32,000 nt of DNA from Balneolaceae bacterium. Its GTDB lineage: Bacteria > Bacteroidota > Rhodothermia > Balneolales > Balneolaceae. The DNA lies in the NCBI GenBank assembly GCA_965228545.1, contig OZ245822.1:3162795-3194794 (forward strand), in the 5' to 3' direction. Position 1 is the stretch's first letter, and each line of letters starts with the position of its first letter. Below are positions 3,142-30,889 of the stretch, in pieces. A model generated the notes under the pieces. The model did not search any database. It was not told the DNA's origin and saw only the letters and a list, made by a program, of their open reading frames with translations. The translations under genes were made by a program, and so were the position numbers.

Positions 3142-6099
3142 ATGATAAAACGACATCTATCTGCATTTTTACTCACTATCTTTTTGGTTTCGATTCCGGC
3201 ATTAGCCCAATCAACCGGCCGGATTAGTGGCGTGATTACCGAAGCAGGCATAAACGAGCCTTTACCCGCCGTAAACGTTCGAATAGTTGGCTCCAATTTA
3301 GGTGCAGCAACCGATATTGATGGAAACTATACCATTCGTGGAATTCGTCCAGGCGAATATACTATCGAAATATCTTTTCTTGGCTTCAAAAAAGTACAGG
3401 TTACAGGTATTAAAGTTGAGGCCGGCGAAACTACCGTTGTAAATCAAACACTGGAAGAAGAAGTATTTGAAGCGGATGGAGAGGTAGTAGTAATAGGCGA
3501 GGCACCAATTTTTGATGTTGAGAAATCGAATACCTCGGTTAATATCTCTCGGCAAGATTTAGAAGCAGCTCCAATCCAGCGTGTAGAAGATGCGGTTTCA
3601 TTGCAATCTGGAGTTGTTAAAGACCCAACCGGACTATATATCAAAGGTGGCCGTGCCTACGAAACCGGATTTGTGGTTGATGGTGTATCTGCACAGGATC
3701 CATTGGCAGGTACTGGATTCGGGTTAGATTTGGGTTCAAATTCGTTCTCGAATGTTGAAGTAATAACCGGTGGCGTTGGCGCAGAATATGGCGATGTAAC
3801 TTCAGGTGTTGTAGCTGTACAAACACAAAACGGTGGCGAGCGCTACGAGGGAACGTTTACTCACAAGCGAGATAATCTTGGTTCCAATAATATGGCCAAC
3901 CAAGCCAACTTCTTCGAAGATGTATATGAATTTACACTTGGTGGCCCCGGAATTGTCACCGAGCGACTACTGCCCTCTCTGGGATTGAATTTGCCGGGTA
4001 CATTCACCTTCTTCTTAACCGGGCAAGTTGGCTTTACCGATGGGTATACAAAAATTTCAGCAAACCAAATTCGATCATCTATCGTAGATAGCGAGTTTTG
4101 GTCGCCCCGGCAAGGAAATCGCTGGAATGGTATGATGAAATTAACCTACAATGTACGCCCGGGTTTACGAGTTCAGGCAGCGTATCAGCGTTCGTTAACT
4201 ATCAATCAAAATACACGCATGTTGCAGATAACCGGTGCAGATACACAAATACGGCCGGGTTTCCAGTTCGCTTTTTCGAATGGATTTTTAGATAACGCAA
4301 ATACGTATACACACGATAGTAATTTGTCATACTTGAAATGGACACAAACTATTGATCAGTCTTCGTTTTTCGAAGTTCAACTAAGCCGATTGTTCACTCA
4401 GCTACGTGCCGATGCAAATGGCCGTGATTGGAGGCCGGAAAATGTAGACAGTGAATTTGATCCCGAAAGTATAGTAACTCGTCCGGCTGAAGAATTCCAA
4501 GGTACAGACGATTTCACCTATGTGTTAGCTGGTCCAGGATATTTCAATAATGGCGGTATCGCTCAGCTATGGCACGATCACTTTGCTGAAGAAGTCACAT
4601 TAAAGTCATCATTCACGAAATTTTTTGGCGAGCGTATTAATCAAATTGTGGTAGGCTTCGAAGCGAAATTCAACGACTACCAATGGGTAGATATCACTCG
4701 TCCTTGGATTGGGGCCCCCATCAAGATTGATGACGATACTTTCTCCGAGACGTTCAGAGTTGGAGAAACTTTTGATGCATGGCGTGTAAAGCCTAAACGT
4801 GGAGCATTATTCATTACCGATAAAGTGAGATATAATGGACTAATAGCCAATATTGGGGCACGCATCGAGTACTGGGCGCCGGGTAGATATGTTGATAATG
4901 CGGTAGAAGACGCACTAGCCGAAAATTCGGTATCAACCATTCCCCGATTTATTGCCGAACAGTATCAAGAGAGTACTACCGAAGTATTCGGGTTGCGTTA
5001 CAAATTCCGATTCCTGCCTAAGGTAAACGTGTCTTTCCCTGTTAAAGACAATCAGGTTTTATTTTTCAATTACGGGCATTCCGCGCGTGTGCCTCATCCA
5101 ACTTTTATTTATGCGGGATTAGACCCTTTTTATCAAGACCAGTCTGATCTACCGGATTTAGGAAACCCAAATTTGGATCCTGAAATTGATATTTCCTATG
5201 AAATCGGTTTCCGAAATCAAATTACTTCTAACGATGCGCTCAATATTTCGGCCTTCTGGCGAGATAAATATGATTTTGTAACCTCACAGCTAATTCGAGT
5301 ACAAGATGTGGATGGCCGCGATGTTTCAAAAGCGTTCCGTATTAATGGTGATTATGCACGTGCAAGAGGGATTGAAATGTCGTACTTAAAACGATATAAA
5401 GATTTATTGCGCGGACAGCTTTCCTTTACATACTCTCGTGCAGAAGGACTTAGTTCAACTAATGATGATAATCTGAACAGCATAAACGCACGCCAAAATA
5501 TTGGTAGCAACGTAGAAACACCACTTGCATGGGATCGCCCATTCGATATCAAAGGGAATGTTACATTCACTTACGATCGAAGCAACCCCTTACTCGATCT
5601 TGGTATTTTAAATCAGTTTCAGATGTTTTTATCTGCAGTTTGGCGAAGTGGAACCCGATACACACCTAACGAATTTGTTGGCTTCCAGCGAAATCCGGTA
5701 ACCGGAGAGGAAGATTGGCGTCCGATTTATGAGCGTGTTGATGATCCGGCGAAACGATTCAGTGAAGTTGGCCCTGCATGGTTTACCGTCGACTTCAACT
5801 TCCGAAAATGGTTCGAAATAAACGATACACAAATTTCTGCCTTTGTTGAAATCACCAATTTATTAAACAACCGCAGTTCGGTTATTGTAAACCCTGTAAC
5901 AGGCGAAGGCTACAAACAATATCCATCCGATCCGGCTGCTCTCATTGCTTTACGCGACGATCGTAGCTACGATGTTCCAACTAATGTTCGTGATCCTCGC
6001 TATCTGGATCCAACCGATAATAATCTTCCTTCCTACGATAACCCTGCCAATTACATAGAGCAGCGTCATATTTTGGTTGGCTTATCCGTACGATTCTAA
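3142..6099 (+). CDS. TonB-dependent outer-membrane receptor with N-terminal carboxypeptidase-regulatory-like domain
   Basis: It has a signal peptide ending ALAQ. A CarboxypepD_reg-like stretch follows (GRISGVITEAGINEPLPAVNVRIVGSNLGAATDIDGNYTIRGIRPGEYTIEISFLGFKK). A plug-like region is present (LQSGVV...IKGGRAYETGFVVDGV...GVGAEYGDVTSGVVAVQT). The C-terminal beta-signal is LVGLSVRF. Confidence 0.85.
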   Translation: MIKRHLSAFLLTIFLVSIPALAQSTGRISGVITEAGINEPLPAVNVRIVGSNLGAATDIDGNYTIRGIRPGEYTIEISFLGFKKVQVTGIKVEAGETTVVNQTLEEEVFEADGEVVVIGEAPIFDVEKSNTSVNISRQDLEAAPIQRVEDAVSLQSGVVKDPTGLYIKGGRAYETGFVVDGVSAQDPLAGTGFGLDLGSNSFSNVEVITGGVGAEYGDVTSGVVAVQTQNGGERYEGTFTHKRDNLGSNNMANQANFFEDVYEFTLGGPGIVTERLLPSLGLNLPGTFTFFLTGQVGFTDGYTKISANQIRSSIVDSEFWSPRQGNRWNGMMKLTYNVRPGLRVQAAYQRSLTINQNTRMLQITGADTQIRPGFQFAFSNGFLDNANTYTHDSNLSYLKWTQTIDQSSFFEVQLSRLFTQLRADANGRDWRPENVDSEFDPESIVTRPAEEFQGTDDFTYVLAGPGYFNNGGIAQLWHDHFAEEVTLKSSFTKFFGERINQIVVGFEAKFNDYQWVDITRPWIGAPIKIDDDTFSETFRVGETFDAWRVKPKRGALFITDKVRYNGLIANIGARIEYWAPGRYVDNAVEDALAENSVSTIPRFIAEQYQESTTEVFGLRYKFRFLPKVNVSFPVKDNQVLFFNYGHSARVPHPTFIYAGLDPFYQDQSDLPDLGNPNLDPEIDISYEIGFRNQITSNDALNISAFWRDKYDFVTSQLIRVQDVDGRDVSKAFRINGDYARARGIEMSYLKRYKDLLRGQLSFTYSRAEGLSSTNDDNLNSINARQNIGSNVETPLAWDRPFDIKGNVTFTYDRSNPLLDLGILNQFQMFLSAVWRSGTRYTPNEFVGFQRNPVTGEEDWRPIYERVDDPAKRFSEVGPAWFTVDFNFRKWFEINDTQISAFVEITNLLNNRSSVIVNPVTGEGYKQYPSDPAALIALRDDRSYDVPTNVRDPRYLDPTDNNLPSYDNPANYIEQRHILVGLSVRF

Positions 6100-7088
6100 T
6101 GCATATGAAGAAATTTCTACTCCCACTTTGTGTACTGTTCACGTTTGCCACTCCACTGTTTGCGCAGGGTAGTTTTGGCGAAGACCGTGCAGGAACCGAA
6201 GGGTTTCAGTTTACAAAAATAGCAGTTGATCCCAGAAGCGCGGCAATGGGCAATTCAAATATGGCAGATGCTTACGATGCCTCTAGTTTATATTGGAACC
6301 CTGCGCTTTCAGCTCGCCTCGAAGGCAGTAATGTAATGCTCAGCCATACGCGTTATTTCGCAGGCATAAATCTCGATTACTTTTCTGTTGTTCAAAAAGT
6401 GGGCGATTTTGCTTTGGGTGGTTCCGTGCAATATTTGAGTTCAGGAGATATCACTGAAACCACTGAATTTCAACCTTTTGGCACTGGCAGAACCTTTGCT
6501 ACCCATCATTTGTCGGCGGGGGCTTCTGTATCCCATGAAGTAACCGAACTCTTCAGTTATGGTATTACTTTTCGCTATCTGATGGAAAAAATCGAAGAAA
6601 TACAATACCAAAGTGGTGCTATCGACTTTGGGTTTTCTTACCTCGTTGGTGATACCGGTCTGAGATTTGCCGTGGGAATAAATAACTTTGGATTTGATTC
6701 AAGCCCTGAAGGCACTACAACCCGAGAAAGCTTAAATGGAGTGGAAGAAATTGAACCGGAAGAGCAGCAATCGCTACCAACCCGATTTTTAATTGGTGCC
6801 GCTTACGATTTGATCGACAACGAAGAAAACTCGTTGGTACTAACCGCTCAAATCACCAACCCAAGCGACAATGCCGAACAATTTAATCTGGGTGCCGAAT
6901 ATGGTTTTATGAAGCAATTTTTTGTGCGAACCGGTTATGAGTTTGGCATCGAAGAACGCAAAATTCCAAGTTTTGGTGCCGGTGTGGAATTACCATTTGG
7001 AAACAGAATAATACGCGCAGATTATGCGTACTCTTTATACGAACGCCTCGGTGAAATTCATCGAATAGCTATTAATGTAGCATTATGA
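6099..7088 (+). CDS. PorV/PorQ-family outer-membrane beta-barrel protein
   Basis: It has a signal peptide ending LFAQ. The N-terminal motif GTEGFQFTKIAVDPRSAAMGNSNMADAYDASSLYWNPALSA matches the PorV/PorQ family signature as I know it. Its start overlaps the upstream stop (TAATG). Confidence 0.7.
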   Translation: MHMKKFLLPLCVLFTFATPLFAQGSFGEDRAGTEGFQFTKIAVDPRSAAMGNSNMADAYDASSLYWNPALSARLEGSNVMLSHTRYFAGINLDYFSVVQKVGDFALGGSVQYLSSGDITETTEFQPFGTGRTFATHHLSAGASVSHEVTELFSYGITFRYLMEKIEEIQYQSGAIDFGFSYLVGDTGLRFAVGINNFGFDSSPEGTTTRESLNGVEEIEPEEQQSLPTRFLIGAAYDLIDNEENSLVLTAQITNPSDNAEQFNLGAEYGFMKQFFVRTGYEFGIEERKIPSFGAGVELPFGNRIIRADYAYSLYERLGEIHRIAINVAL

Positions 7089-17248: not shown

Positions 17249-18130
17249 ATGAGTAACGAACAACAGAAAATTCTGGAACAACTTAAAGCAAATGCAAAAG
17301 ATGCAGAATCATTTAAGCACCTAGAGCAGCTTTTTGGCGACCTTTACAAGAAATACAATCAAGCACAAGAACATGTAGGTTTGCTTGAGAGTGCTATTCG
17401 TAATGATTACGATTCCATTCTTATAACAGAGCTCAATCTCGAACGTCCGGGGCCGAAAATTGTGTACGTTAACGACGGCTTTACTCGCATGACCGGCTAC
17501 ACCAAAGAAGAAGCAATTGGAAACACGCCAAGAATGCTTCAAGGTGAAAAAACAGATCGAGCTATCTTAGACCGCTTAAAGCGTAGGCTTATCGAAGGAC
17601 AGGCATTTTTTGGCCACACTATTAATTACCGAAAAGATGGTTCAGAATTTATTAATCAGTGGGATATTCATCCTTTGATTAATGCTGAGGGCGAGGTTAC
17701 GCATTGGGTTTCTTACCAACGAGATGTAACCGAAAAGAAAGAGACCGCAAAGGCAATTTTCAACACCGATTTTGATGACTTGCTGAAACGCAGAGAAGAG
17801 TTCACAATCAAATTTGAGAAGATTGCTCCTAAAGGAGAAATTAGCTGCAAGTTTATTTCCGAGGCTTTTGAAGAAATTACCGGGCTAAACAAAAACGAGG
17901 TATTTGATAAAGGGTTAGCATCGGTTATCCACAGCGAAGATTTCAGCCAGGTTCAAGAAGCGCTAGAAAAGGCTTTTAGCGGCGAACAATCTGCGCAGTT
18001 ATGTAGGTTTCGAACTACTGCAGGCGGATATATCGATATGTTACAGTCTTTTAAGCCGGTAAAGGATGAGTCCAATGGCGCCATCAGAAGCGTAAAATCT
18101 GTAGTTAAACTGGAATTGAAAGAAAGTTAA
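17249..18130 (+). CDS. Tandem PAS protein; the first PAS is LOV-like but lacks the adduct-forming Cys; no output domain
   Basis: IVYVNDGFTRMTGYTKEEAIGNTPRMLQGEKTD...INYRKDGSEFINQWDIHPL...VSYQRDVTEKKE is collinear with LOV domains (compare YtvA [33 protein letters not shown]...NYKKDG...IQNDITKQKE). A second, divergent PAS-like half follows. Confidence 0.75.
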   Translation: MSNEQQKILEQLKANAKDAESFKHLEQLFGDLYKKYNQAQEHVGLLESAIRNDYDSILITELNLERPGPKIVYVNDGFTRMTGYTKEEAIGNTPRMLQGEKTDRAILDRLKRRLIEGQAFFGHTINYRKDGSEFINQWDIHPLINAEGEVTHWVSYQRDVTEKKETAKAIFNTDFDDLLKRREEFTIKFEKIAPKGEISCKFISEAFEEITGLNKNEVFDKGLASVIHSEDFSQVQEALEKAFSGEQSAQLCRFRTTAGGYIDMLQSFKPVKDESNGAIRSVKSVVKLELKES

Positions 18131-18152
18131 ACAGCGATTGAAACTACTATTG

Positions 18153-18181
18153 AAAAAGCTCACTAATGTGGGCTTTTTTTA
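18153..18181 (+). terminator. Rho-independent terminator
   Basis: AGCTCAC (18157-18163) pairs with GTGGGCT (18168-18174) with one G-U pair. The loop is TAAT, a T7 run follows, and an A-run flanks it upstream. Confidence 0.75.
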
Positions 18182-18216
18182 TATTATGAAACAAAGTTTC
18201 TACCTAAATTAATGTT

Positions 18217-18642
18217 ATGACTATCAACGACATTCAACAACGTATCATCAAAGAATTCAGCTTATTTCAAGATTGGACGGATAAATATAAGCACATAATT
18301 AAACTGGGAAGTAAGCTAGAACCGTTACCCGAAGAAGATCATAAAGATGAAAATTTGGTAAAGGGATGTCAGAGTCAGGTTTGGTTGACGGCTCAACTTG
18401 ATGGTGACACCATAGTATTTAAAGCAGATAGTGACGCTGCAATAACCAAAGGATTGGTAGCATTGATGATTCGAGTATATTCGGGACAAACACCGGATGA
18501 GATTCTTGCTCATAATCCCGACTTTTTGAAACAAATTGGTCTGGCAGAGCATCTTTCACCTACACGAGCAAACGGATTAGCAAGTATGGTAAAGCAAATG
18601 AAGATTTATGCGATGGCATTTAAATCGAAGCTGGTTAGTTAA
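18217..18642 (+). CDS. sufE: SufE-like cysteine desulfuration (sulfur acceptor) protein
   Basis: The active-site motif is KGCQSQVWL. The length and the DSDAAITKGLVAL region are typical of SufE/CsdE. Confidence 0.8.
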   Translation: MTINDIQQRIIKEFSLFQDWTDKYKHIIKLGSKLEPLPEEDHKDENLVKGCQSQVWLTAQLDGDTIVFKADSDAAITKGLVALMIRVYSGQTPDEILAHNPDFLKQIGLAEHLSPTRANGLASMVKQMKIYAMAFKSKLVS

Positions 18643-22872: not shown

Positions 22873-24717
22873 ATGGTTGGGAAAACACACAAATGGCTTT
22901 TAATATTGGTATTTGCCTTTTTAAGCACCGGTATTATTGCGCAAACCTTACCCGGACAGGCGGTAGCTACCGATGTTCAGGAGGAAGCGGCAAAGTACGA
23001 GCAGTACTATGAAGTAATTTTAAATAATGCACTCTCCGATTATTACCGACGAGGTACATTTATTGTAGACGCTAAAGCCACCCTCGAACGAGTGCTGGTA
23101 CCAAGAGGCTACGAAGTAATTGAAGGGGAAGAACCCGTTCGGATCGAAAATTTGCCGGGTCTTCCTTTTGTGCCACCGAACCTGCAACGTTCTACCAACG
23201 GAACTACCGATAGTTTAAAGGCTTCTGGTTTTGACGCGCAATTTAGATTAACACGCCTCACCATAAAAGTACTGGTAGATACTTCATATAGCGATGAAGA
23301 TGTAGAGTTCGTAGAAGAAGCAACCGCTTTAATTGCTAATGCCGATCCTTTTCGTGGCGATATTGTAACGGTTGAAAAAAAGGTTTTTCCAAGAAGTGCT
23401 CGAGCAATAGAGCAAGATGTTAGAAATCAATCGGGCCAAACACAAAATATGGCTGAAGAACCTCAAGTTGAACTGCTTGAGCCGGTTACCAATCAGCAAG
23501 CAGAAACCCAGGAGAAGAATATGTTTCTAGGGATTGATTGGAATAATCCACAACATTTAATCTATGTGATTGCAATATTGGGAACGCTATTCTTGATAGC
23601 CTTATTGGTAATATTATTGAGGCGCCCTTCAAAACATGAAGAAGAATATCGAGTTCCAACAATGCCGGCATACAAGCCCGGAGAACCAATGCCCGCAGCC
23701 GAAACCAAGGTTGAGCCTAAAGGCCCTGATGCTAAAACACTTGCACAACACGAAGAGGATAAAACCTTTGTAACCAATTCTTGTATCAGCCACCCAGATA
23801 AAGTAGCCGACTTAGTTGAACAATGGATTGCCAGTGATGATGAGCAGGGCATTATTCGTTCGGCACGTTCATTAAATTGCGTTGACGAAAAACTGATAAA
23901 TGTGCTGGAGCCGCATTTGAAAGTAGAGCACTATGAGTCGGTTAAATATGCAATTCAGAATTTGGAGCCAGTTCCGATCGATGAAAAAATTGATGAAGTG
24001 AAGGCTTTAAGAAGAAGTTTACAACAAATAAACTCTAAAAATGGTACGGCTGATTCCGGTTCGAACCTATTTGATTTTGTATATCAACTAACTGATGTAC
24101 AATTGTTGCACCTAATTAAAGAAGAGTCGGATGAATTAGTTGCCATATTACTTGCCCAAATTGCAGGTGAACGAGCCGGAGTAATTCTGCAAAAGATGGA
24201 CGACCAGAAGCGAATTTCAATTCTGCTGAAAATGGGTAAGATTAATAATATCCCTATTTCGGTATATAAAAAGGTGGCTGCTCACTTCTCGAATAAAGCA
24301 TTGTCGGTGTCTGATATGAAGTATGTTGCCGCAGACGGTATCGACTCGATTCTTACCACACTCGAGACCATGCCATTATCCGAGCAAGACGAGTATGTAC
24401 GTTCCATTGCCGAGCAGGATCTTAACCTGGCAAAACGAATTAAGAAATTTTTCATTGGTTTTGATGACCTACCGAAAGTGAAAGACGATTTTGTTCAAAG
24501 TGCACTGGAAGATATCCAAACTGAAACTTTGATTTTGGCACTTAAAACCGCACCAGCGGCAGTTAGAGAAAAGATTCTAAAAGTGCGCCCAAAACGTGAA
24601 CAACAGTTAATACTTTCTGAAGTAGACAACCCGGCAGATGTACCAAAAGCTAGTATCGAAGATGCCCAAAAAACGGTGTTGTATGCAGTTCGTAGAAAAA
24701 TGAAGACTGAGGGCTAA
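22873..24717 (+). CDS. Membrane-tethered FliF-C-like / FliG-like fusion protein (candidate rotor)
   Basis: The N-terminal hydrophobic segment is WLLILVFAFLSTGIIAQ. The periplasmic part ends in a FliF-C-type motif (LTRLTIKVLVD...ADPFRGDIVTVEKKVF, RGD at nt 23353-23361). The TM helix is LIYVIAILGTLFLIALLVILL (about nt 23557-23619). The cytoplasmic region from aa ~306-612 is collinear with FliG N/M/C, for example FFIGFDDLPKVKDDFVQSALEDIQTETLILALKTAPAAVREKILKVRPKREQQLILSEVDNPADVPKASIEDAQKTVLYAVRRK versus T. maritima FliG MFVFEDILKLDDRSIQLVLREVDTRDLALALKGASDELKEKIFKNMSKRAAALLKDELEYMGPVRLKDVEEAQQKIINIIRRL. Confidence 0.7.
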   Translation: MVGKTHKWLLILVFAFLSTGIIAQTLPGQAVATDVQEEAAKYEQYYEVILNNALSDYYRRGTFIVDAKATLERVLVPRGYEVIEGEEPVRIENLPGLPFVPPNLQRSTNGTTDSLKASGFDAQFRLTRLTIKVLVDTSYSDEDVEFVEEATALIANADPFRGDIVTVEKKVFPRSARAIEQDVRNQSGQTQNMAEEPQVELLEPVTNQQAETQEKNMFLGIDWNNPQHLIYVIAILGTLFLIALLVILLRRPSKHEEEYRVPTMPAYKPGEPMPAAETKVEPKGPDAKTLAQHEEDKTFVTNSCISHPDKVADLVEQWIASDDEQGIIRSARSLNCVDEKLINVLEPHLKVEHYESVKYAIQNLEPVPIDEKIDEVKALRRSLQQINSKNGTADSGSNLFDFVYQLTDVQLLHLIKEESDELVAILLAQIAGERAGVILQKMDDQKRISILLKMGKINNIPISVYKKVAAHFSNKALSVSDMKYVAADGIDSILTTLETMPLSEQDEYVRSIAEQDLNLAKRIKKFFIGFDDLPKVKDDFVQSALEDIQTETLILALKTAPAAVREKILKVRPKREQQLILSEVDNPADVPKASIEDAQKTVLYAVRRKMKTEG

Positions 24718-24719
24718 GC

Positions 24720-25805
24720 ATGAAAAGAATAGTACCGCTTGGTTTTCTGATACTACTACTTGGCTCAGTTGAATTAGTTCAGGCACAAACCCACGAAGAA
24801 GGTGTGCCGTATCAAATGGAGTTGATTAGTATCCAAATGGCGGATCAACTAAACGATATTCCTGCAAATATTCGCAGAGTTGCGGTATATAAGATGAACT
24901 ACAACGCTATGCGCTTTACAATGCAGGAAGTAGAGTTTATCCGTAGCGAAATAGAAGCTTCATTAAGTGAATATGCCGGATTAACAGTGCTTTCTCCACC
25001 AGAGCTGGAACCTAATGATAAAATGAAAATTTTCGGCAGCGACAGTACCCTGCAGATTCTAAATATTCAAGGAAGATCTTTGGCTGATGTTTCCCCAGAA
25101 TTTCTTTCCGAAATTAGCTCAAAATATGGAGTAAACGGTCTTATTGAGGTTGGCATGCAACGCCGTAATCCAGATGGATTAATACTTTCGATGAGAATGA
25201 TGAACCCAAATTCCAGAGAAATTGTATGGACAAAAAGCTTCATTGCCAATCCATTCGAGATAGAGGAAGAAGTGGACAAAGGGAATACCCTTGTATTTTC
25301 TTTCGGGGCTGGTGCACTGCAAACAGAATCAAAATTCAGAACGGATACTTCGTTTGCAAACCAAGATACGGCGTTTAGTTCTCTCGTATTTAATTATGCA
25401 GCAAATGTATCGTATCGCCAGCCAATTAATGCGGAAAATAGCGCATTTATAGGTTTTACCGGAGGTATTAATTTGCTGCGTTCGAGCCAAGACAATGATT
25501 TTGATCTAACTCTGATAGAACTAGGAATATCATACTATCAGGCGCTGTCTCCAGAAAAGAATGTGACAATCAATGATTATAAAATGATGCTGTTTTTGAA
25601 ATCCAGTATTCTATTTCCTGTGAGTTCGGTTCAAGGAGAAATACTTTCGGCCCAACCAGGACTAATGCTCAATTTGAGTAAAAACCTTGGGGTATCATTT
25701 TATACCAGCTTGATTTTATCCGGCGAAGAATTAACTCTGGAAAACAACGACAGAATAACATACAACAAGGTTGGATATGGAGTACATGCAGTTGTCAGGT
25801 TCTAA
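24720..25805 (+). CDS. Probable outer-membrane protein: periplasmic alpha/beta N-domain plus C-terminal beta-barrel
   Basis: The signal peptide ends VQAQ. The C-terminal half has alternating hydrophobic residues and ends in the OMP beta-signal YGVHAVVRF. The N-half pattern (IRRVAVYKMNYNA...GVNGLIEVGMQRRNPDGLILSMRMMNPNSREIVWTKSF) weakly recalls CsgG/LpoB/TolB-N/FlgO-type modules. Confidence 0.5.
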   Translation: MKRIVPLGFLILLLGSVELVQAQTHEEGVPYQMELISIQMADQLNDIPANIRRVAVYKMNYNAMRFTMQEVEFIRSEIEASLSEYAGLTVLSPPELEPNDKMKIFGSDSTLQILNIQGRSLADVSPEFLSEISSKYGVNGLIEVGMQRRNPDGLILSMRMMNPNSREIVWTKSFIANPFEIEEEVDKGNTLVFSFGAGALQTESKFRTDTSFANQDTAFSSLVFNYAANVSYRQPINAENSAFIGFTGGINLLRSSQDNDFDLTLIELGISYYQALSPEKNVTINDYKMMLFLKSSILFPVSSVQGEILSAQPGLMLNLSKNLGVSFYTSLILSGEELTLENNDRITYNKVGYGVHAVVRF

Positions 25806-26397
25806 ATCGATTTTACTTTTGATCTTGGTTGCATTTGCAAGCTATGGCTGTAAATCAAGCGAGCCTATTCAAGCGAATTCGCAGCCTACGTTTCAAACCA
25901 TGCCAGAAATAACAACCTCTGATGCGAGGAATGAAACCAATCAGAATGAAGACAAGCCAAACCCGGTAATTGTTACCTACCGCAACGCAAGTTCTGCAAT
26001 TCAAATTACCCTAGATCCCAGTAGGGATGAATTTTATCTTGATTTAAAAGGGATGACACCTACAGAAAAGGATTCTATCGTTGTTGTAGACTCCTCTATT
26101 GTTAACAATCGCGCTCGGGATATTCAAACGCTTTTATCGAGCTACAGGAAAGCGCAAGATCTGTTTTATTTAGGTGAGTACAAAGATGCTTTAGATGAGG
26201 TAGAGAAAACACTAGAGATTCAAGAAACGGCAGATGCTTATGCGCTAAAGGGTACCATATTTTTTATGATGGAGAATATAACAGCAGCCAGAGCAAACTG
26301 GAATAAAGCAGTGCAAATGGATCCTAATATTCCGGTTCCAAGCATACCGGAATTAGAAACTTTAATTAACGAACTACGAGAGGACGGTAGACAATGA
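25786..26397 (+). CDS. TPR-repeat lipoprotein
   Basis: The signal with Cys is SILLLILVAFASYGC. The TPR-like helices are AQDLFYLGEYKDALDEVEKTLEIQETADAYALKGTIFFMMENITAARANWNKAVQMDPN. The start is ambiguous (TTG 25771, ATG 25777 or ATG 25786), and every option overlaps the upstream gene. Confidence 0.6.
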   Translation: MQLSGSKSILLLILVAFASYGCKSSEPIQANSQPTFQTMPEITTSDARNETNQNEDKPNPVIVTYRNASSAIQITLDPSRDEFYLDLKGMTPTEKDSIVVVDSSIVNNRARDIQTLLSSYRKAQDLFYLGEYKDALDEVEKTLEIQETADAYALKGTIFFMMENITAARANWNKAVQMDPNIPVPSIPELETLINELREDGRQ

Positions 26398-27212
26398 GAC
26401 TTTCGTTAACCAACATACTTGGGGTGATTTTCAGTATTGGAATATTAGTTTTCGGAATCACTGAAATAACTAATGTAACGGCTGTACTAAGCTCCATACC
26501 GGCGCTATCGCAGTACACGTTTTTAAATCTTCCAAGTTTATTTATTGTGATGGGTGGAATTTTAAATGCCGTTTTCATTACCTATCAACCAAAATATGTA
26601 GGGCAAGCTTTTGCAGGCATTTTCTACATTTTCAGCCAGGCAAAAACATCATCAAAAACCCTAGAAAATGATCTCGGCGAAATGCTGGTGTGGAACGATC
26701 AGATAAAAAATAACAGGGTTAACGCCTTATCGAAACTAGAAGACGAACACAATGGTGAAGTTTCGGGCTATTTATTCTCGCTAATGAGTACAAACTACTC
26801 TAATGAGGATATTAAATCGTTTGGTTCTAACCACATCGAAGAGCAATATTTCCGCCAGCTTGTAGTGGTAGATGTGCTACGTGCAATGGGGGCAGCAGCG
26901 CCTTCTTTTGGGATGTTTGGAACTCTGTTCGGATTGGTTGTAATGCTCGGCCAGCTTGAAAATCCATCCGGTATGGGGCCCGGGCTTGCCGCGGCATTAA
27001 TTACAACCTTGTACGGCATCTCTCTTGCTCGATTTATCTTTTATCCGGTGGCTGAAAAAATTAAAAATGTGGCACAGCTCAATCGTTTTCGAGAATACTT
27101 TATTCTTGAAGGTGTTTTGCTGATTAATGAGAAGAAATCATCGTTTTACATTCAGGATAAATTAAGCACATACTTAAGAAGAGACTTCAAGAATAAGCAG
27201 GTAGCAGATTAA
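26394..27212 (+). CDS. MotA/PomA-family stator proton-channel subunit
   Basis: It has a 4-TM topology with a large TM2-TM3 cytoplasmic loop. The TM3/TM4 signature is AAAPSFGMFGTLFGLVVMLGQL...LAAALITTLYGISLARFIFYPVAEKI, with both conserved prolines present. It overlaps the upstream gene by an ATGA. Confidence 0.8.
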   Translation: MRLSLTNILGVIFSIGILVFGITEITNVTAVLSSIPALSQYTFLNLPSLFIVMGGILNAVFITYQPKYVGQAFAGIFYIFSQAKTSSKTLENDLGEMLVWNDQIKNNRVNALSKLEDEHNGEVSGYLFSLMSTNYSNEDIKSFGSNHIEEQYFRQLVVVDVLRAMGAAAPSFGMFGTLFGLVVMLGQLENPSGMGPGLAAALITTLYGISLARFIFYPVAEKIKNVAQLNRFREYFILEGVLLINEKKSSFYIQDKLSTYLRRDFKNKQVAD

Positions 27213-27226
27213 AATGGAGGCTTTCG

Positions 27227-27919
27227 GTGATTAAACGCGAATATGGCGGTAATTCTGATTTACAGGAAGAACATGTTGAGGACCAAGAATGGTTGCTCAC
27301 TTACAGTGATATGATCACTTTGTTGCTTGCTTTTTTTGCCATGCTTATTGCCGTTTCGTATGTAGATCTAAACCTTTGGGAGCAAATGAAGCAAGGCCTG
27401 CGATCGGAAATATCGAAAGAAGAAAACGTTCGTACTCCGCTTGCTGAGGTTAAAGCTGATTTGGACTCTTTATTGGCAGAAGAAAAATCACAAGGTTTGG
27501 TAGACATAATATTAGACCGTGATGGGATCAAACTTTTCTTTTCCAGTAGTTCATTTTATCAATCAGGAGAAGCTCAATTATTACCAACAGGCCAGAGAAT
27601 CATCGACAAAGTTACACAGGCAATGAATGCCCTTGATTTCTACAAGTTTAATGTGGATGTAGAAGGACATACCGACAACGTACCTATAAATACGCCCGTT
27701 TATCCATCCAATTGGGAATTGTCGGTAGCGCGAGCCTCTGGGGTAGTTAAATATTTTATCGAAGAAGGAATTGAAGCCGAGCGGCTTAAAGCCTCTGGGT
27801 ATGCAGATACAAAACCGGTAGTACCCCATGTAGATGAACAAGGCAGGAATATTGTTGAAAACAGAGCCCTGAATAGGAGAATTGTGGTACGTATTTATTA
27901 TCAATTGGCATCGAACTAA
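27227..27919 (+). CDS. MotB/OmpA-family stator subunit with peptidoglycan-binding domain
   Basis: A GTG start follows GGAGG. The TM is EWLLTYSDMITLLLAFFAML with the conserved Asp (Asp28, nt 27308-27310). The OmpA-like domain is VEGHTDNVP...SNWELSVARASGVVKYF...GYADTKPV...NRALNRRIVV. Confidence 0.85.
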   Translation: MIKREYGGNSDLQEEHVEDQEWLLTYSDMITLLLAFFAMLIAVSYVDLNLWEQMKQGLRSEISKEENVRTPLAEVKADLDSLLAEEKSQGLVDIILDRDGIKLFFSSSSFYQSGEAQLLPTGQRIIDKVTQAMNALDFYKFNVDVEGHTDNVPINTPVYPSNWELSVARASGVVKYFIEEGIEAERLKASGYADTKPVVPHVDEQGRNIVENRALNRRIVVRIYYQLASN

Positions 27920-27964: not shown

Positions 27965-30889
27965 ATGCCTATGAAAAAACTTTTACTATCTCTTTCGCTA
28001 CTCTTTTTCGGGAATTATCAAGTACATGCTCAGGCTATTTCCGATTCCATGGCAGTGCTACCCTCTAAAGCAATTCATCAAACAGATATATTAAGAGCTT
28101 TATCCGGTCTTTCACCCGGGCTTAAAATTACATCTACCGGCGGAGTTTCAGGTACAGGTACAAATGCAGTACTTCGAGGTTATTCCAGCTTAAATGCGCC
28201 TAGCGATCCCTTAATTATAGTAGACGGTATTCGTTTTAATGGAGCAAACAATCATAACAGCACCGCATTTAACGGCGGCGGAGCTCTGGTGACACCAAGC
28301 CGATCTTTCGATCTACATCCCTCCGAAATACTTTCTGTAAACGTTTTAAGCTCACTTCAGGGAACGTTGATTTACGGTGAAGAGGCTACAAATGGAGTTA
28401 TTGAAATTACTACTCGAAGAAACCCCATCGATTTAGCCGACGAAGGGTATGAAATAACGATCGATCAAAGTGTATACTCTTCAAGTATCTCGAGCCGGCC
28501 GGAATACCAAAATGAATATGGTATGGGTTTTAACGGGCAATATGGGCCTTTTTTTAGCTCTTGGGGGGCATCCTTCGGCAGTCAGAACCCGGCAGAGTTT
28601 CCATCAAATTTTAATGGCTTAGATGATGATGGCACAGTACTGGTAGATCATCCTTATGGGTTTTATAATTTTGCAACCGATGGGGCTCCCGATTATGCGA
28701 CAGAAGTTTATCGCTTTGAAGCTAGAGAATCAGCTACCGATGCCTACTTTAGAAATGGGGTAGGTTCACGCTCATTTATAGATCTTAACTATCGAAAAGG
28801 CAGAACCAATTGGAGTTTTAATTATGCCGGAAATCGAGAAGATGGGTTTACACCAAACAACTCGATATTGAAAAATAGCTTTGGCGCTTCAGCAAGCTAT
28901 CGGCTTATCGACAAAGTGCAAGGTAGCACCAGTGTTCAATTTTTATTTTCTGATGTGAAAATGCCTCCACAATCTGCTGGGAGTGGAAGTGGTGTAGTTG
29001 AAGGCGGGGCAACTTCTGGAGCTTTTACTTATGTGCTGTTCACGCCAAGATCAATCGATCTGTCGCTTCCAAGTGTTAATCCTGATAACGATGGATTTAC
29101 TTATTATCGACCGGATATAATACATCCCAAATGGTTTGCAAATAATGCATCAACCACCAACGAAACCAATCGAATTTTAGGTAAAACCTCCCTTACTTTT
29201 AATCCTTCCGATCAATTTGAGTTTACATACAGATATAGTTTCGATAGTTACGATGAAAATCAGGAGTACAAACTCAATCCAACGGGTACATTTAATTTCC
29301 CTTATGTGTTAGGATTGTTTCAAACCATAGAGTTAAATCGAACGTTGCTCGACAATTTTGCACTAGCAACTTATCGCCCGAATATAAGTGATCGATTAAC
29401 TGCTAACATCGATTTGGGCAGCCATTATATCAGCGAAAACATCAATGAAAAAGGTTTGGAAAGCACAGACATTAGAACGGTTGGTGTTTTCGAACACGAA
29501 AATTTTCGAGTACAAAGCAATACCAATTCTTTTACCGATGAATTGATGGAGCGAGAATTCGAGCGAAGGTCCTTTGGTGCTTTTGGTGCCTTAAATCTAC
29601 TCTTCGATGAGTGGATATACACAAAGGCGGGATTTAGAAAGCAATGGAATCAATCCTTGCATCAGCAAAATTTAAAGGCCACCTATCCATCTTTTACGGT
29701 AGGAATAATTCCAACAAATCTGCTCGAAAACAACCAGTTGTTAAGTTCTTTCGATCTCTCATTTTCGTATTTAACCTCCGGCAGATCCAGATTAACGGAA
29801 TTAGAAATACTGGTTCAGGATCGGCCTAGTGTTGGGGTAAATGAAGAGTTGAAGCCCGAACGATCAATCGAAAAACAGCTGGCTGCCACAATAGGCTTTT
29901 TCAATAATAGAATTTCATTATCAAGTAAATACTATCATCGCATTCATACCGATTTGATTTCCAGAATCGCAGTTAACCCAACTCAAGGCTTTGGCTCAAT
30001 ACTAGATAATTTACTAGAAATGGAGGTTAAAGGAGTAGACGCACAAGCGCGTATTGTTCCATTGCAAGGAAAAGTAAACTGGGCGATAATTTCTAATTTT
30101 AGCACATCTAAAGCCGAAGTGAAAGAATACACCGGAACCTTTAATGCCATTCAATTGGGAAATAGTCAATCGTTTAGAGGGAATCTTGCACAAGTAAACG
30201 AACCCTTTTTAAGCATGTATGGTAGTACAATTCTGCGTGTAACAAGCGATATACAAAGAGCTGATCCAAACATGAGAAATGTACCGATAGGAACCCCGAT
30301 TATCGATAACAATGGAAATTATATCACTGATCAAAATTCGATAATAGGAAATCCAATTCCAGATTGGAACCTCTCCACACTCCAACAGATCGATTACAAG
30401 AATATCACCTTATCTATTCAAATTGACTACCAAAAAGGTGGCGATATGTACAGTAGTTGGATTAGTTCGCTGATAGGCCGAGGGTTAGTAACTTCAACAT
30501 TGAATAGGGAAGAGACGTTTATTATTGAGGGTGTGCAGTTTGATGGAACGCCTAACGATATCGAGATTAGCAAACAACAGTATTATTTCAATAACCTCGG
30601 GTTTGGCCCAGACGAACTAAGAGTTTACGACATGACGCACCTGCGTATTTCACATATTGGTTTTGCTTATCAAGTTCCACAACAATGGATTATGAAAACC
30701 GGATTGAAAGAGGTAATTATTTCCTTCTCGGTAGAAAATGCCTTTCTGAAAATGTACAATATTCCAGAAGGTACTGGATTTGATCCGAATGTAAATTCGA
30801 ATGGGGCAGGACTTAACAATTTGGGTTTTGAATACTTAACCGGTCCGGGGGTTCGCAGATTTGGGGGTTCGATTCGGGTGAGCATATAA
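27965..30889 (+). CDS. SusC/RagA-like TonB-linked outer-membrane transporter with no SusD partner
   Basis: The signal ends VHAQ. The plug motifs are ILRALSGLSPGLKITSTGGVSGTGTNAVLRGYSSL, DPLIIVDGIRF and EEATNGVIEITTRR. It is ~970 aa with a C-terminal beta-strand GGSIRVSI. No SusD-like gene follows. Confidence 0.8.
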   Translation: MPMKKLLLSLSLLFFGNYQVHAQAISDSMAVLPSKAIHQTDILRALSGLSPGLKITSTGGVSGTGTNAVLRGYSSLNAPSDPLIIVDGIRFNGANNHNSTAFNGGGALVTPSRSFDLHPSEILSVNVLSSLQGTLIYGEEATNGVIEITTRRNPIDLADEGYEITIDQSVYSSSISSRPEYQNEYGMGFNGQYGPFFSSWGASFGSQNPAEFPSNFNGLDDDGTVLVDHPYGFYNFATDGAPDYATEVYRFEARESATDAYFRNGVGSRSFIDLNYRKGRTNWSFNYAGNREDGFTPNNSILKNSFGASASYRLIDKVQGSTSVQFLFSDVKMPPQSAGSGSGVVEGGATSGAFTYVLFTPRSIDLSLPSVNPDNDGFTYYRPDIIHPKWFANNASTTNETNRILGKTSLTFNPSDQFEFTYRYSFDSYDENQEYKLNPTGTFNFPYVLGLFQTIELNRTLLDNFALATYRPNISDRLTANIDLGSHYISENINEKGLESTDIRTVGVFEHENFRVQSNTNSFTDELMEREFERRSFGAFGALNLLFDEWIYTKAGFRKQWNQSLHQQNLKATYPSFTVGIIPTNLLENNQLLSSFDLSFSYLTSGRSRLTELEILVQDRPSVGVNEELKPERSIEKQLAATIGFFNNRISLSSKYYHRIHTDLISRIAVNPTQGFGSILDNLLEMEVKGVDAQARIVPLQGKVNWAIISNFSTSKAEVKEYTGTFNAIQLGNSQSFRGNLAQVNEPFLSMYGSTILRVTSDIQRADPNMRNVPIGTPIIDNNGNYITDQNSIIGNPIPDWNLSTLQQIDYKNITLSIQIDYQKGGDMYSSWISSLIGRGLVTSTLNREETFIIEGVQFDGTPNDIEISKQQYYFNNLGFGPDELRVYDMTHLRISHIGFAYQVPQQWIMKTGLKEVIISFSVENAFLKMYNIPEGTGFDPNVNSNGAGLNNLGFEYLTGPGVRRFGGSIRVSI

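Follow-up and report, generated by a model that had tools for sequence, protein, structure and literature searches.

A FliF–FliG fusion protein encoded beside MotA- and MotB-type stator genes in a conserved cassette of Balneolaceae and other bacteria

The stretch of DNA analysed here (32,000 nucleotides; hereafter, the window) belongs to a Balneolaceae bacterium (GenBank assembly GCA_965228545.1, contig OZ245822.1, positions 3,162,795 to 3,194,794 of the forward strand). On its plus strand, the open reading frame (ORF) at positions 22873–24717 is intact and encodes a protein of 614 amino acids (aa) in which a FliF-like ring module is fused to FliG. Four genes follow on the same strand, with spacings of 2–15 nt or overlaps. 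They code for a secreted 361-aa protein of a novel family (p361), a tetratricopeptide repeat (TPR) lipoprotein, and stator subunits of the MotA and MotB types. An AT-rich spacer of 246 bp lies upstream of the fusion gene. Scans for consensus promoters and terminators around this five-gene cassette returned counts at chance level.

Architecture of the fusion protein

Pfam profiles matched the 614-aa protein with FliG_C at residues 511–611 (E = 8e-19) and FliG_M at residues 410–481 (E = 9e-8), and profile matches to FliG entries of the PDB reached E = 1e-16. In profile–profile alignments with hhalign, residues 401–614 corresponded to residues 108–320 of E. coli FliG (Prob 99.1, E = 7.9e-19), and residues 126–178 of the fusion family profile to residues 374–435 of E. 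coli FliF (Prob 92.9, E = 3.8e-7), a stretch that takes in an RGD motif shared by both proteins. The Pfam model YscJ_FliF_C gave a sub-threshold match to residues 121–169 that is weak when taken alone (E = 0.059), and no match to YscJ_FliF (PF01514) was found in the fusion protein, the periplasmic part of which spans ~200 aa with a single ring-building motif (RBM). Among 72 diverse relatives, FliG_C was detected in 72, FliG_M in 70, FliG_N in 62, and YscJ_FliF_C in 37 (best E = 7e-8).

An AlphaFold2 (AF2) model based on only 23 close homologues was poor (predicted local distance difference test, pLDDT, 58.7) and was replaced by one built on an alignment of 103 sequences that extends down to 20% identity, with a mean pLDDT of 84.2. 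In this model, the protein starts with a hydrophobic helix (residues 6–24; 22888–22944), which is a putative Sec signal peptide or a first, FliF-like transmembrane (TM) anchor; a hydrophobic segment at the N-terminus is also present in many relatives. The adjoining periplasmic ring-building module (residues 30–172; 22960–23388) comprises helices 30–55 and 141–154 and strands 63–82, 115–135, and 164–169. Its alpha, beta, insert, beta, alpha, beta order is RBM3-like, and its pLDDT is mostly >90. Strands 63–82 and 115–135 form a long beta-hairpin that resembles the beta-collar of FliF and ends in a tip loop (residues 83–114; 23119–23214). A TM helix (residues 226–250; 23548–23622) and a disordered linker of ~35 aa lead to an all-helical region at residues 287–613, which consists of a FliG_N-like domain (residues 287–390; 23731–24042; pLDDT 89–98), a FliG_M-like domain (residues 398–500; 24064–24372), and a FliG_C-like domain (residues 502–613; 24376–24711). 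The Pfam FliG_N match in one relative (P0172) falls at the place equivalent to the N-like domain of the fusion.

Foldseek searches of the model against the PDB retrieved full-length FliG structures (3hjl, E = 2e-10; others, including 8wiw_3 and 8umx_B, to E = 1e-8), with 304–324 aligned columns on FliG chains of 310–331 aa that included FliG of the Salmonella cytoplasmic (C) ring. The periplasmic module matched the RBM3, S-ring, and collar region of FliF (8z5v_A, E = 2.5e-4, target-normalised TM-score 0.59, prob 1.00). Matches to over 15 other entries of the membrane and supramembrane (MS) ring, including 8zdt_A and 6sd1_A, were also obtained. All of these domain matches are far beyond chance. 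We conclude that the protein is a true homologue of the RBM3 and collar of FliF, linked to a complete FliG by one TM helix. It has neither RBM1 nor RBM2, and a single RBM3 with a collar-like hairpin makes up the ring-building part. As is expected of FliF, two hydrophobic segments (helices 6–24 and 226–250) flank the periplasmic region. No curated family model was found for the fusion family.

These results confirm the structural claims of a preliminary description of the window that was made from the sequence alone. Foldseek, hhalign, and Pfam concur on the covalent FliF-like/FliG fusion in one 614-aa ORF that it had proposed, and the RBM3 with its collar-like hairpin bears out its view that one ring-building module stands in place of RBM1–3. 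The FliF-C-like stretch had been placed at 23242–23388 (residues 124–172), which is supported by the hhalign match (E = 3.8e-7), the Foldseek matches, and the Pfam matches in 37 of the 72 relatives. The TM helix had been placed at 23557–23619 (residues 229–249), within the AF2 helix and in line with the hydrophobic segment of the relatives. A FliG-like fold, rather than an unrelated helical repeat, is supported by the match of the AF2 model to full-length FliG. The FliG N/M/C region was likewise recovered by Pfam and Foldseek, with a start nearer to residue 287 (nt 23731) than to the nt 23788 first suggested.

In flagellar FliG, the middle domain carries the EHPQ(R) motif that contacts FliM. 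HMMER and hhalign agreed on the register of this site and aligned K416-E417-E418-S419-D420-E421 of the fusion with R123-D124-E125-H126-P127-Q128 of E. coli FliG. The EHPQ equivalent reads ESDE (E418-S419-D420-E421; 24124–24135), and K453 sits at the position of FliG R160. Across 103 members of the family, the equivalent of E125 was kept in 81 and is the sole EHPQ residue conserved family-wide, the equivalents of H126, P127, Q128, and R160 being unconserved. The replacement of EHPQ(R) by EESDE (24121–24135) was thereby recovered in the same register as first described. That the motif is absent stands, whereas the word “lost”, used in the preliminary description, presumes an evolutionary direction.

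The torque helix of the FliG_C-like domain was mapped by HMMER and hhalign to residues 574–584 (24592–24624). Relative to E. coli FliG, K558 corresponds to K264, R575 to R281, S582 to D288, E583 to D289, and P591 to R297; charges are kept at K558, R575, and E583, and S582 and P591 are uncharged. Among the 103 members, 90 have R and 11 have K at the R281 position (R or K in 101/103), and 49 have an acidic residue at the D289 position (E in 45, D in four). The earlier observation that the Arg, one acidic residue, and the E/D-AQ are kept and that the other charged positions differ remains valid; the segment start at nt 24589 is P573 and not V571. Taken together, the family appears to have retained the stator-facing site and to lack the switch site throughout.

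Residues that are near-invariant across the family include P95, G96, and P98 of an LPGLP motif, F146, G162-D163 of the RGD motif, P173, F400, and F402. LPGLP is near-invariant in the 103 sequences although the mean column identity of the alignment is 20%. It lies in the tip loop of the hairpin in the AF2 model, which makes this tip a likely, if putative, partner-binding site. We know of no counterpart of LPGLP in FliF.

Partner genes and the stator

The gene next to the fusion (24720–25805, plus strand) encodes p361, in which a signal peptide and a soluble periplasmic domain at the N-terminus are followed by a C-terminal half that is rich in beta-structure and terminates in an aromatic residue. 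This sequence pattern points to an outer-membrane beta-barrel, and p361 is predicted to be one. No significant Pfam or PDB sequence match was found for p361; two of 20 members matched OMP_b-brl weakly. A CsgG/LpoB/FlgO-like identity of the N-terminal domain was considered and found unsupported, as hhalign against such a protein from one of the related loci (L074) gave a Prob of only 0.08.

The third gene (25771–26397, plus strand) codes for a protein of ~206 aa with matches to TPR_1 and TPR_2. Since a Cys follows the hydrophobic region of the signal sequence in every member, the protein is regarded as a lipoprotein.

The start codon of motA (26394–27212, plus strand) overlaps the stop codon of the TPR gene. 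Its 272-aa product is a MotA/PomA-type stator A subunit (MotA_ExbB, E = 1e-18) that was matched over its full length by PomA (8bri, E = 4e-22) and other flagellar MotA structures. The best NCBIfam models were MotP and PomA, and TolQ/ExbB scored just around E = 1e-3. The cytoplasmic loop contains the segment ALSKLEDEHNGE. The last gene (27227–27919, plus strand) encodes a MotB-type B subunit of 230 aa with a plug (MotB_plug, E = 1e-13), a channel aspartate (D28), which aligns with the SD motif of MotB in 6ysf, and an OmpA-like peptidoglycan-binding domain (OmpA, E = 3e-16). Both stator subunits score under all NCBIfam equivalog cutoffs, MotA with 115.4 against 394 for MotP and MotB with 160.4 against 283 for MotD, its best model. 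A survey of stators named the plug, the OmpA domain, and the torque interface as traits of “flagellar” MotAB stators (the FIT, TGI4 class; PMC12505986, 2025). The cassette encodes a four-TM A subunit, whose large cytoplasmic domain lies between TM2 and TM3, and a B subunit with plug, channel Asp, and OmpA-like domain, and its stator accordingly looks functional and of flagellar type by these sequence features. A relation to Zorya or another defence system was rejected: PADLOC reported generic ZorB/MotB similarity for the B subunit only, found no ZorA, ZorC, or ZorD, and had no match for the other three proteins.

In the alignment with PomA, R88 corresponds to K105 and E96 to S113 of the cassette MotA, with an acidic cluster at residues 116–118; position 113 is acidic in ten of 18 cassette representatives. 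An hhalign alignment with E. coli MotA conflicted in register with the PomA alignment. The torque helix (24586–24630) and the MotA loop (26700–26760) differ concertedly between clades in a comparison that included loci L019–L043 and L071–L074. In one group, RPKRE..SE in the FliG part is paired with IK.NR..ALS.LE in the MotA loop, and in the other, LPERM..SG is paired with VQAEG..A.D. The charges at E583 and K105, which are equivalent to D289 and R90, are both present in one group and both absent in the other. This covariation, seen in few independent lineages, is suggestive.

A stator of this kind beside a FliG-like protein could also serve a machine that does not rotate. In this explanation, a FliG-like ring or oligomer would act as a docking platform that recruits MotAB, and the proton-motive force would power local force transduction or trans-envelope signalling, such as a Tol-Pal-like tethering or remodelling of the outer membrane. 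The pair of TPR lipoprotein and OmpA-domain B subunit parallels CpoB and Pal of Tol-Pal, classical tol-pal loci are reported to be missing from Bacteroidota (PMC12204202), and the charges of the torque helix are just partly conserved. Yet the A subunit is a four-TM protein of the flagellar type with a large cytoplasmic domain and not a TolQ/ExbB, a full FliG with a conserved R281 equivalent is placed on an RBM3 module, and the cassette contains no TolA/TonB-like or TolB-like gene. RBM3 modules build large rings in all cases known to us. We therefore consider a non-rotating platform rather unlikely.

Distribution of the cassette and its hosts

A protein search over 1.84 billion representative proteins returned 2740 matches to the fusion, of which 111 had E < 1e-30. 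The top 150 matches were mostly proteins of ~600 aa that aligned end to end; 127 of them were 550–760 aa long, and nearly all had a hydrophobic segment at residue ~200–300. The fusion architecture is common to at least 125 clusters at 50% identity and is kept down to ~20% identity. In the close set (55–100% identical), many columns are invariant in both the periplasmic and the FliG part.

We compared 74 related loci, of which 18 came from genomes, 48 were of metagenomic origin, and eight were located by an exact protein look-up. All of them were scored with hidden Markov models built from the cassette of the window. The metagenome scan used the alignment of one sub-clade as query. Loci with at least 3.6 kb downstream of the fusion were considered informative (n = 57). 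The order fusion, p361, TPR, MotA, and MotB was found in 50 of these 57 loci. Five (one clade, L059–L064) contained only the fusion, p361, and the TPR gene, followed by unrelated genes, and the remaining two had a different layout, here called type B (see below). MotA and MotB adjoin the fusion in 52/57 informative loci, and p361 was the next gene in all 16 shorter loci that retained downstream sequence. The GC content of the loci ranged from 33.5 to 64.6%, and their flanks were unrelated housekeeping genes. The conserved order with unrelated flanks across this GC range indicates that the five genes travel as a unit. In the clade without MotAB (L059–L065; e.g., L059:7935–11724), a MarR gene, a TonB-dependent receptor, and an ISL3 transposase were observed downstream; the stator of these organisms may be encoded elsewhere or be missing.

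A gradual loss of flagellar genes has been proposed for Balneolaceae (PMC9909488), and the cassette might be viewed as a decaying, functionless relic of a lost flagellum. This is hardly credible, as reading frames are intact in all loci, neither frequent frameshifts in the relatives nor a dN/dS near 1 are seen, the periplasmic and FliG parts are strongly conserved, the architecture persists in at least 125 clusters at down to ~20% identity, and the five-gene order is kept across lineages of 34–65% GC.

The nearest relatives of the fusion were from Balneolaceae and Balneola metagenome-assembled genomes (MAGs). Named hosts comprised Gracilimonas tropica, the isolate of which is non-motile, Bacteroidota MAGs, and one MAG labelled Elusimicrobia, in which the fusion is annotated as “Flagellar motor switch protein FliG”. 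The lineages in which the family occurs are largely described as non-flagellated. Gracilimonas tropica, Balneola, Fodinibius, and Rhodohalobacter were reported to be without flagellar-assembly genes, and Aliifodinibius to have many flagellar genes (PMC9909488). Balneola vulgaris has been described as motile with flagella (PMC5167729), which clashes with the report on its genus. Flagellar genes other than those of the cassette, including fliM and fliN, were absent from the window and from the Pfam-annotated genes of the fully read loci of six relatives; in the remaining loci, scoring covered the five cassette families. Cassettes labelled “FliG” could confuse flagellar pathway calls, and the labels “FliG”, “MotA”, and “MotB” assigned by annotation pipelines can yield false calls of an “incomplete flagellar pathway”.

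The annotation of relatives as flagellar motor switch proteins, the many flagellar genes of some Balneolaceae, and the flagella described for Balneola vulgaris would fit a true flagellar role, in which the fusion serves as the MS-ring and rotor protein of an atypical, reduced flagellum and the remaining flagellar genes are located in other parts of the genome. Engineered FliF–FliG fusions of Salmonella and Vibrio also work in flagella, and their covalent 1:1 link is compatible with ring assembly (PMC10941966, PMC11481574; PDB 8z4d, 8z4g). Unlike the cassette fusion, these constructs contain a full-length FliF and are part of a complete flagellum with FliM and FliN. In older work on Salmonella fusion mutants, the covalent link was reportedly compatible with rotation as well. 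In FliF, RBM1 and RBM2 surround the export gate, and both are absent here. The FliM-binding motif is absent family-wide, and the fusion scored 87.6 bits against the FliG equivalog TIGR00207, far below its cutoff of 226.7 (NF004260, 16 against 550). Furthermore, the fusion is accompanied by its own stator and two non-flagellar envelope proteins in 50/57 informative loci, the cassette occurs in the non-motile Gracilimonas tropica, and some genomes harbour two divergent paralogous cassettes. In view of these differences, a flagellar role of the fusion is improbable.

A possible switchless rotor and its surroundings

With moderate confidence, we interpret the fusion as the subunit of a switchless, non-flagellar ring rotor that is driven by MotAB and coupled to the outer membrane. 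With its periplasmic RBM3 and collar, one TM helix in the inner membrane, and a cytoplasmic FliG, it would represent a minimal natural rotor subunit. Flagellar FliF assembles into rings of about 33–34 subunits, under which FliG forms a ring of its own. In an analogous manner, many copies of the fusion may assemble into an inner-membrane ring that has a FliG ring in 1:1 ratio below it. Peptidoglycan-anchored stators of the MotA5B2 type, driven by ion flow, would push the torque helix of FliG_C via its conserved Arg and thereby turn the ring. Without a FliM-binding surface and with no accompanying fliM, fliN, or cheY gene, the device would lack a C-ring and CheY-controlled switching. An axial filament is not expected either, since RBM1 and RBM2 are missing and no type III export, rod, hook, or filament genes are found alongside. 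The output would pass through the LPGLP hairpin tip to p361 and the TPR lipoprotein and toward the outer membrane, as suggested by the conservation of the tip and the co-encoding of the two proteins. Candidate outputs are surface movement and an envelope or outer-membrane process. A rotor that still faces a MotA-type stator and does not recruit a FliM/FliN switch had already been put forward in the preliminary description. The R or K at the R281 equivalent in 101/103 members, the unconserved H126, P127, Q128, and R160 equivalents, the presence of MotAB in 52/57 informative loci, and the absence of fliM and fliN from the window and the six fully read loci support this proposal; the contact and the lack of a switch are what we infer from them.

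Several observations weigh against a rotor of this kind. The D288 and R297 equivalents carry no charge, the MotA residue equivalent to E96/E98 is a Ser in this clade according to the PomA alignment, and the positions assigned to the MotA charges vary with the alignment used, hhalign placing them differently. The covariation between FliG and MotA is based on few independent lineages. One clade (L059–L065) has no MotAB beside the fusion. The fold of p361 and its location in the outer membrane are predictions from its sequence pattern. Among the Balneolaceae, Aliifodinibius is rich in flagellar genes and Balneola vulgaris is described as flagellated. Finally, oligomerisation, rotation, and FliG–MotA contact are all inferred.

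Like flagellar FliF and FliG (Salmonella 8wiw, 8umx, 6sd1, 8zdt), the cassette has an RBM3/beta-collar with RGD, a TM helix, a three-domain FliG, equivalents of R281 and D289 on the torque helix, and genes for a MotA/MotB-type stator. It differs by combining these parts in one polypeptide and by lacking RBM1, RBM2, EHPQR, and the D288 and R297 charges. In flagellar systems, FliG is a soluble protein of its own, and its gene lies among fliF, fliH, fliM, fliN, and export genes; here, FliG is fused behind a TM helix, and instead of nearby export, rod, hook, filament, and fliM/fliN genes there are two predicted outer-membrane partners. The stator shares the four-TM A subunit, plug, and OmpA layout of PomAB/MotPS-type stators, but its rotor-contact charges are only partly conserved or have moved, and its setting is apparently non-flagellar.

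The closest natural precedent, which is much more reduced, is a FliF–FliG fusion of Chlamydiaceae with a shortened periplasmic region, whose hosts are regarded as non-flagellated (Bergeron 2016, PMC4768692). That protein has ~330 aa, comprises an RBM2-like motif and one RBM of unknown affinity, lacks a SpoIIIAG-like RBM3, and retains a FliG_M-like part only; no stator was reported, and a function together with the injectisome has been proposed (PMC4768692). Judged by this description, the fusion of the cassette differs by its 614 aa, its RBM3 with collar, its full FliG N/M/C with torque helix, and its dedicated MotAB.

GldLM/PorLM of the type IX secretion system (T9SS) and gliding, ExbBD-TonB, TolQRA-Pal, AglRQS-Glt, and ZorAB share with the cassette the concept of an ion-driven inner-membrane motor of the MotAB family that powers an outer-membrane process in bacteria lacking flagella. 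To our knowledge, none of the GldLM, ExbBD, TolQR, AglRQS, and ZorAB motors has a FliG rotor or a FliF-type ring, and their A subunits are of the ExbB, TolQ, GldL, or ZorA types.

We found no description of a fusion-plus-MotAB cassette in a full-text literature search. Tentatively, and with less assurance than for the rotor, we suggest that the five-gene cassette may be a self-contained switchless rotary machine without export apparatus, rod, hook, or filament, and that the system as a whole may represent a novel type of machine. Both FliG and the MS-ring are considered specific to the flagellum. If the interpretation is true, this would be the first flagellar rotor–stator pair used outside the flagellum, and it would provide a minimal natural system for torque generation without a C-ring. 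A 2025 survey left open the role of rotor proteins in non-motile species, for which the cassette is a concrete, widespread, and genetically compact candidate answer, and a cultured non-motile host, Gracilimonas tropica DSM 19535, makes the question testable. Of the parts of FliF, RBM3 is the one not found in SctJ-like proteins, and the family might therefore also represent a living relative of the motor module whose union with a secretion system gave rise to the flagellum. The cassette is relevant to the sequence of events by which motor and secretion parts came together during flagellum evolution.

A second paralogue of the fusion, ~24% identical to the protein of the window, was observed in Balneolaceae genomes that also contain the first type (L006, L009, L010, L012). 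Its type B loci (L067:1–14878, from CP051242.1 2602157–2623947, and L070:217–13781) contain, in this order, a giant Por_Secre_tail protein (a T9SS cargo), five to six small proteins (DUF4900 and, faintly, DUF4402), a TPR-like protein of ~1000 aa, the fusion, MotA, and MotB. MotB of L067 has an extra SPOR domain, and the cluster has no p361. The position of type B beside T9SS cargo hints that the family drives cell-surface structures. The window itself contains, upstream of the cassette, a Por_Secre_tail protein (66–1583), a TonB-dependent receptor with CarboxypepD_reg (3142–6099), and a PorV-like outer-membrane protein (6099–7088). These T9SS-related genes indicate that the host possesses a T9SS.

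Downstream of the cassette and on the same strand lies a gene for a SusC/RagA-like TonB-dependent transporter (27965–30889), which scored 258 bits and thus below the family cutoff of 368; no SusD-like gene follows it. The cassette could act as a Ton-like energiser of this transporter, as the two adjoin on one strand in the window and in close relatives, and L059, too, has a TonB-dependent receptor gene within a short distance downstream. We consider such a role very improbable. The SusC-like gene follows the cassette only in the closest relatives (L001–L006, L018, L057) and is absent from the other cassettes, for which reason it was rejected as a cassette member. In addition, the cassette encodes no TonB-like protein, and TonB-dependent receptors are very common in the phylum, the window having another one at 3142–6099.

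Upstream of the cassette, the window encodes a double-PAS protein and SufE (17249–18642). In Balneola-type loci (L014–L016, L034, L037–L040, L046–L056), these two genes are located directly 5' of the fusion, and in the window they are separated from the cassette by genes for a hybrid histidine kinase, a GNAT protein, a YCII protein, and an extracytoplasmic function (ECF) sigma factor of the DUF6596 type. The proximity of PAS and SufE genes to the fusion may reflect mere synteny or a regulatory link.

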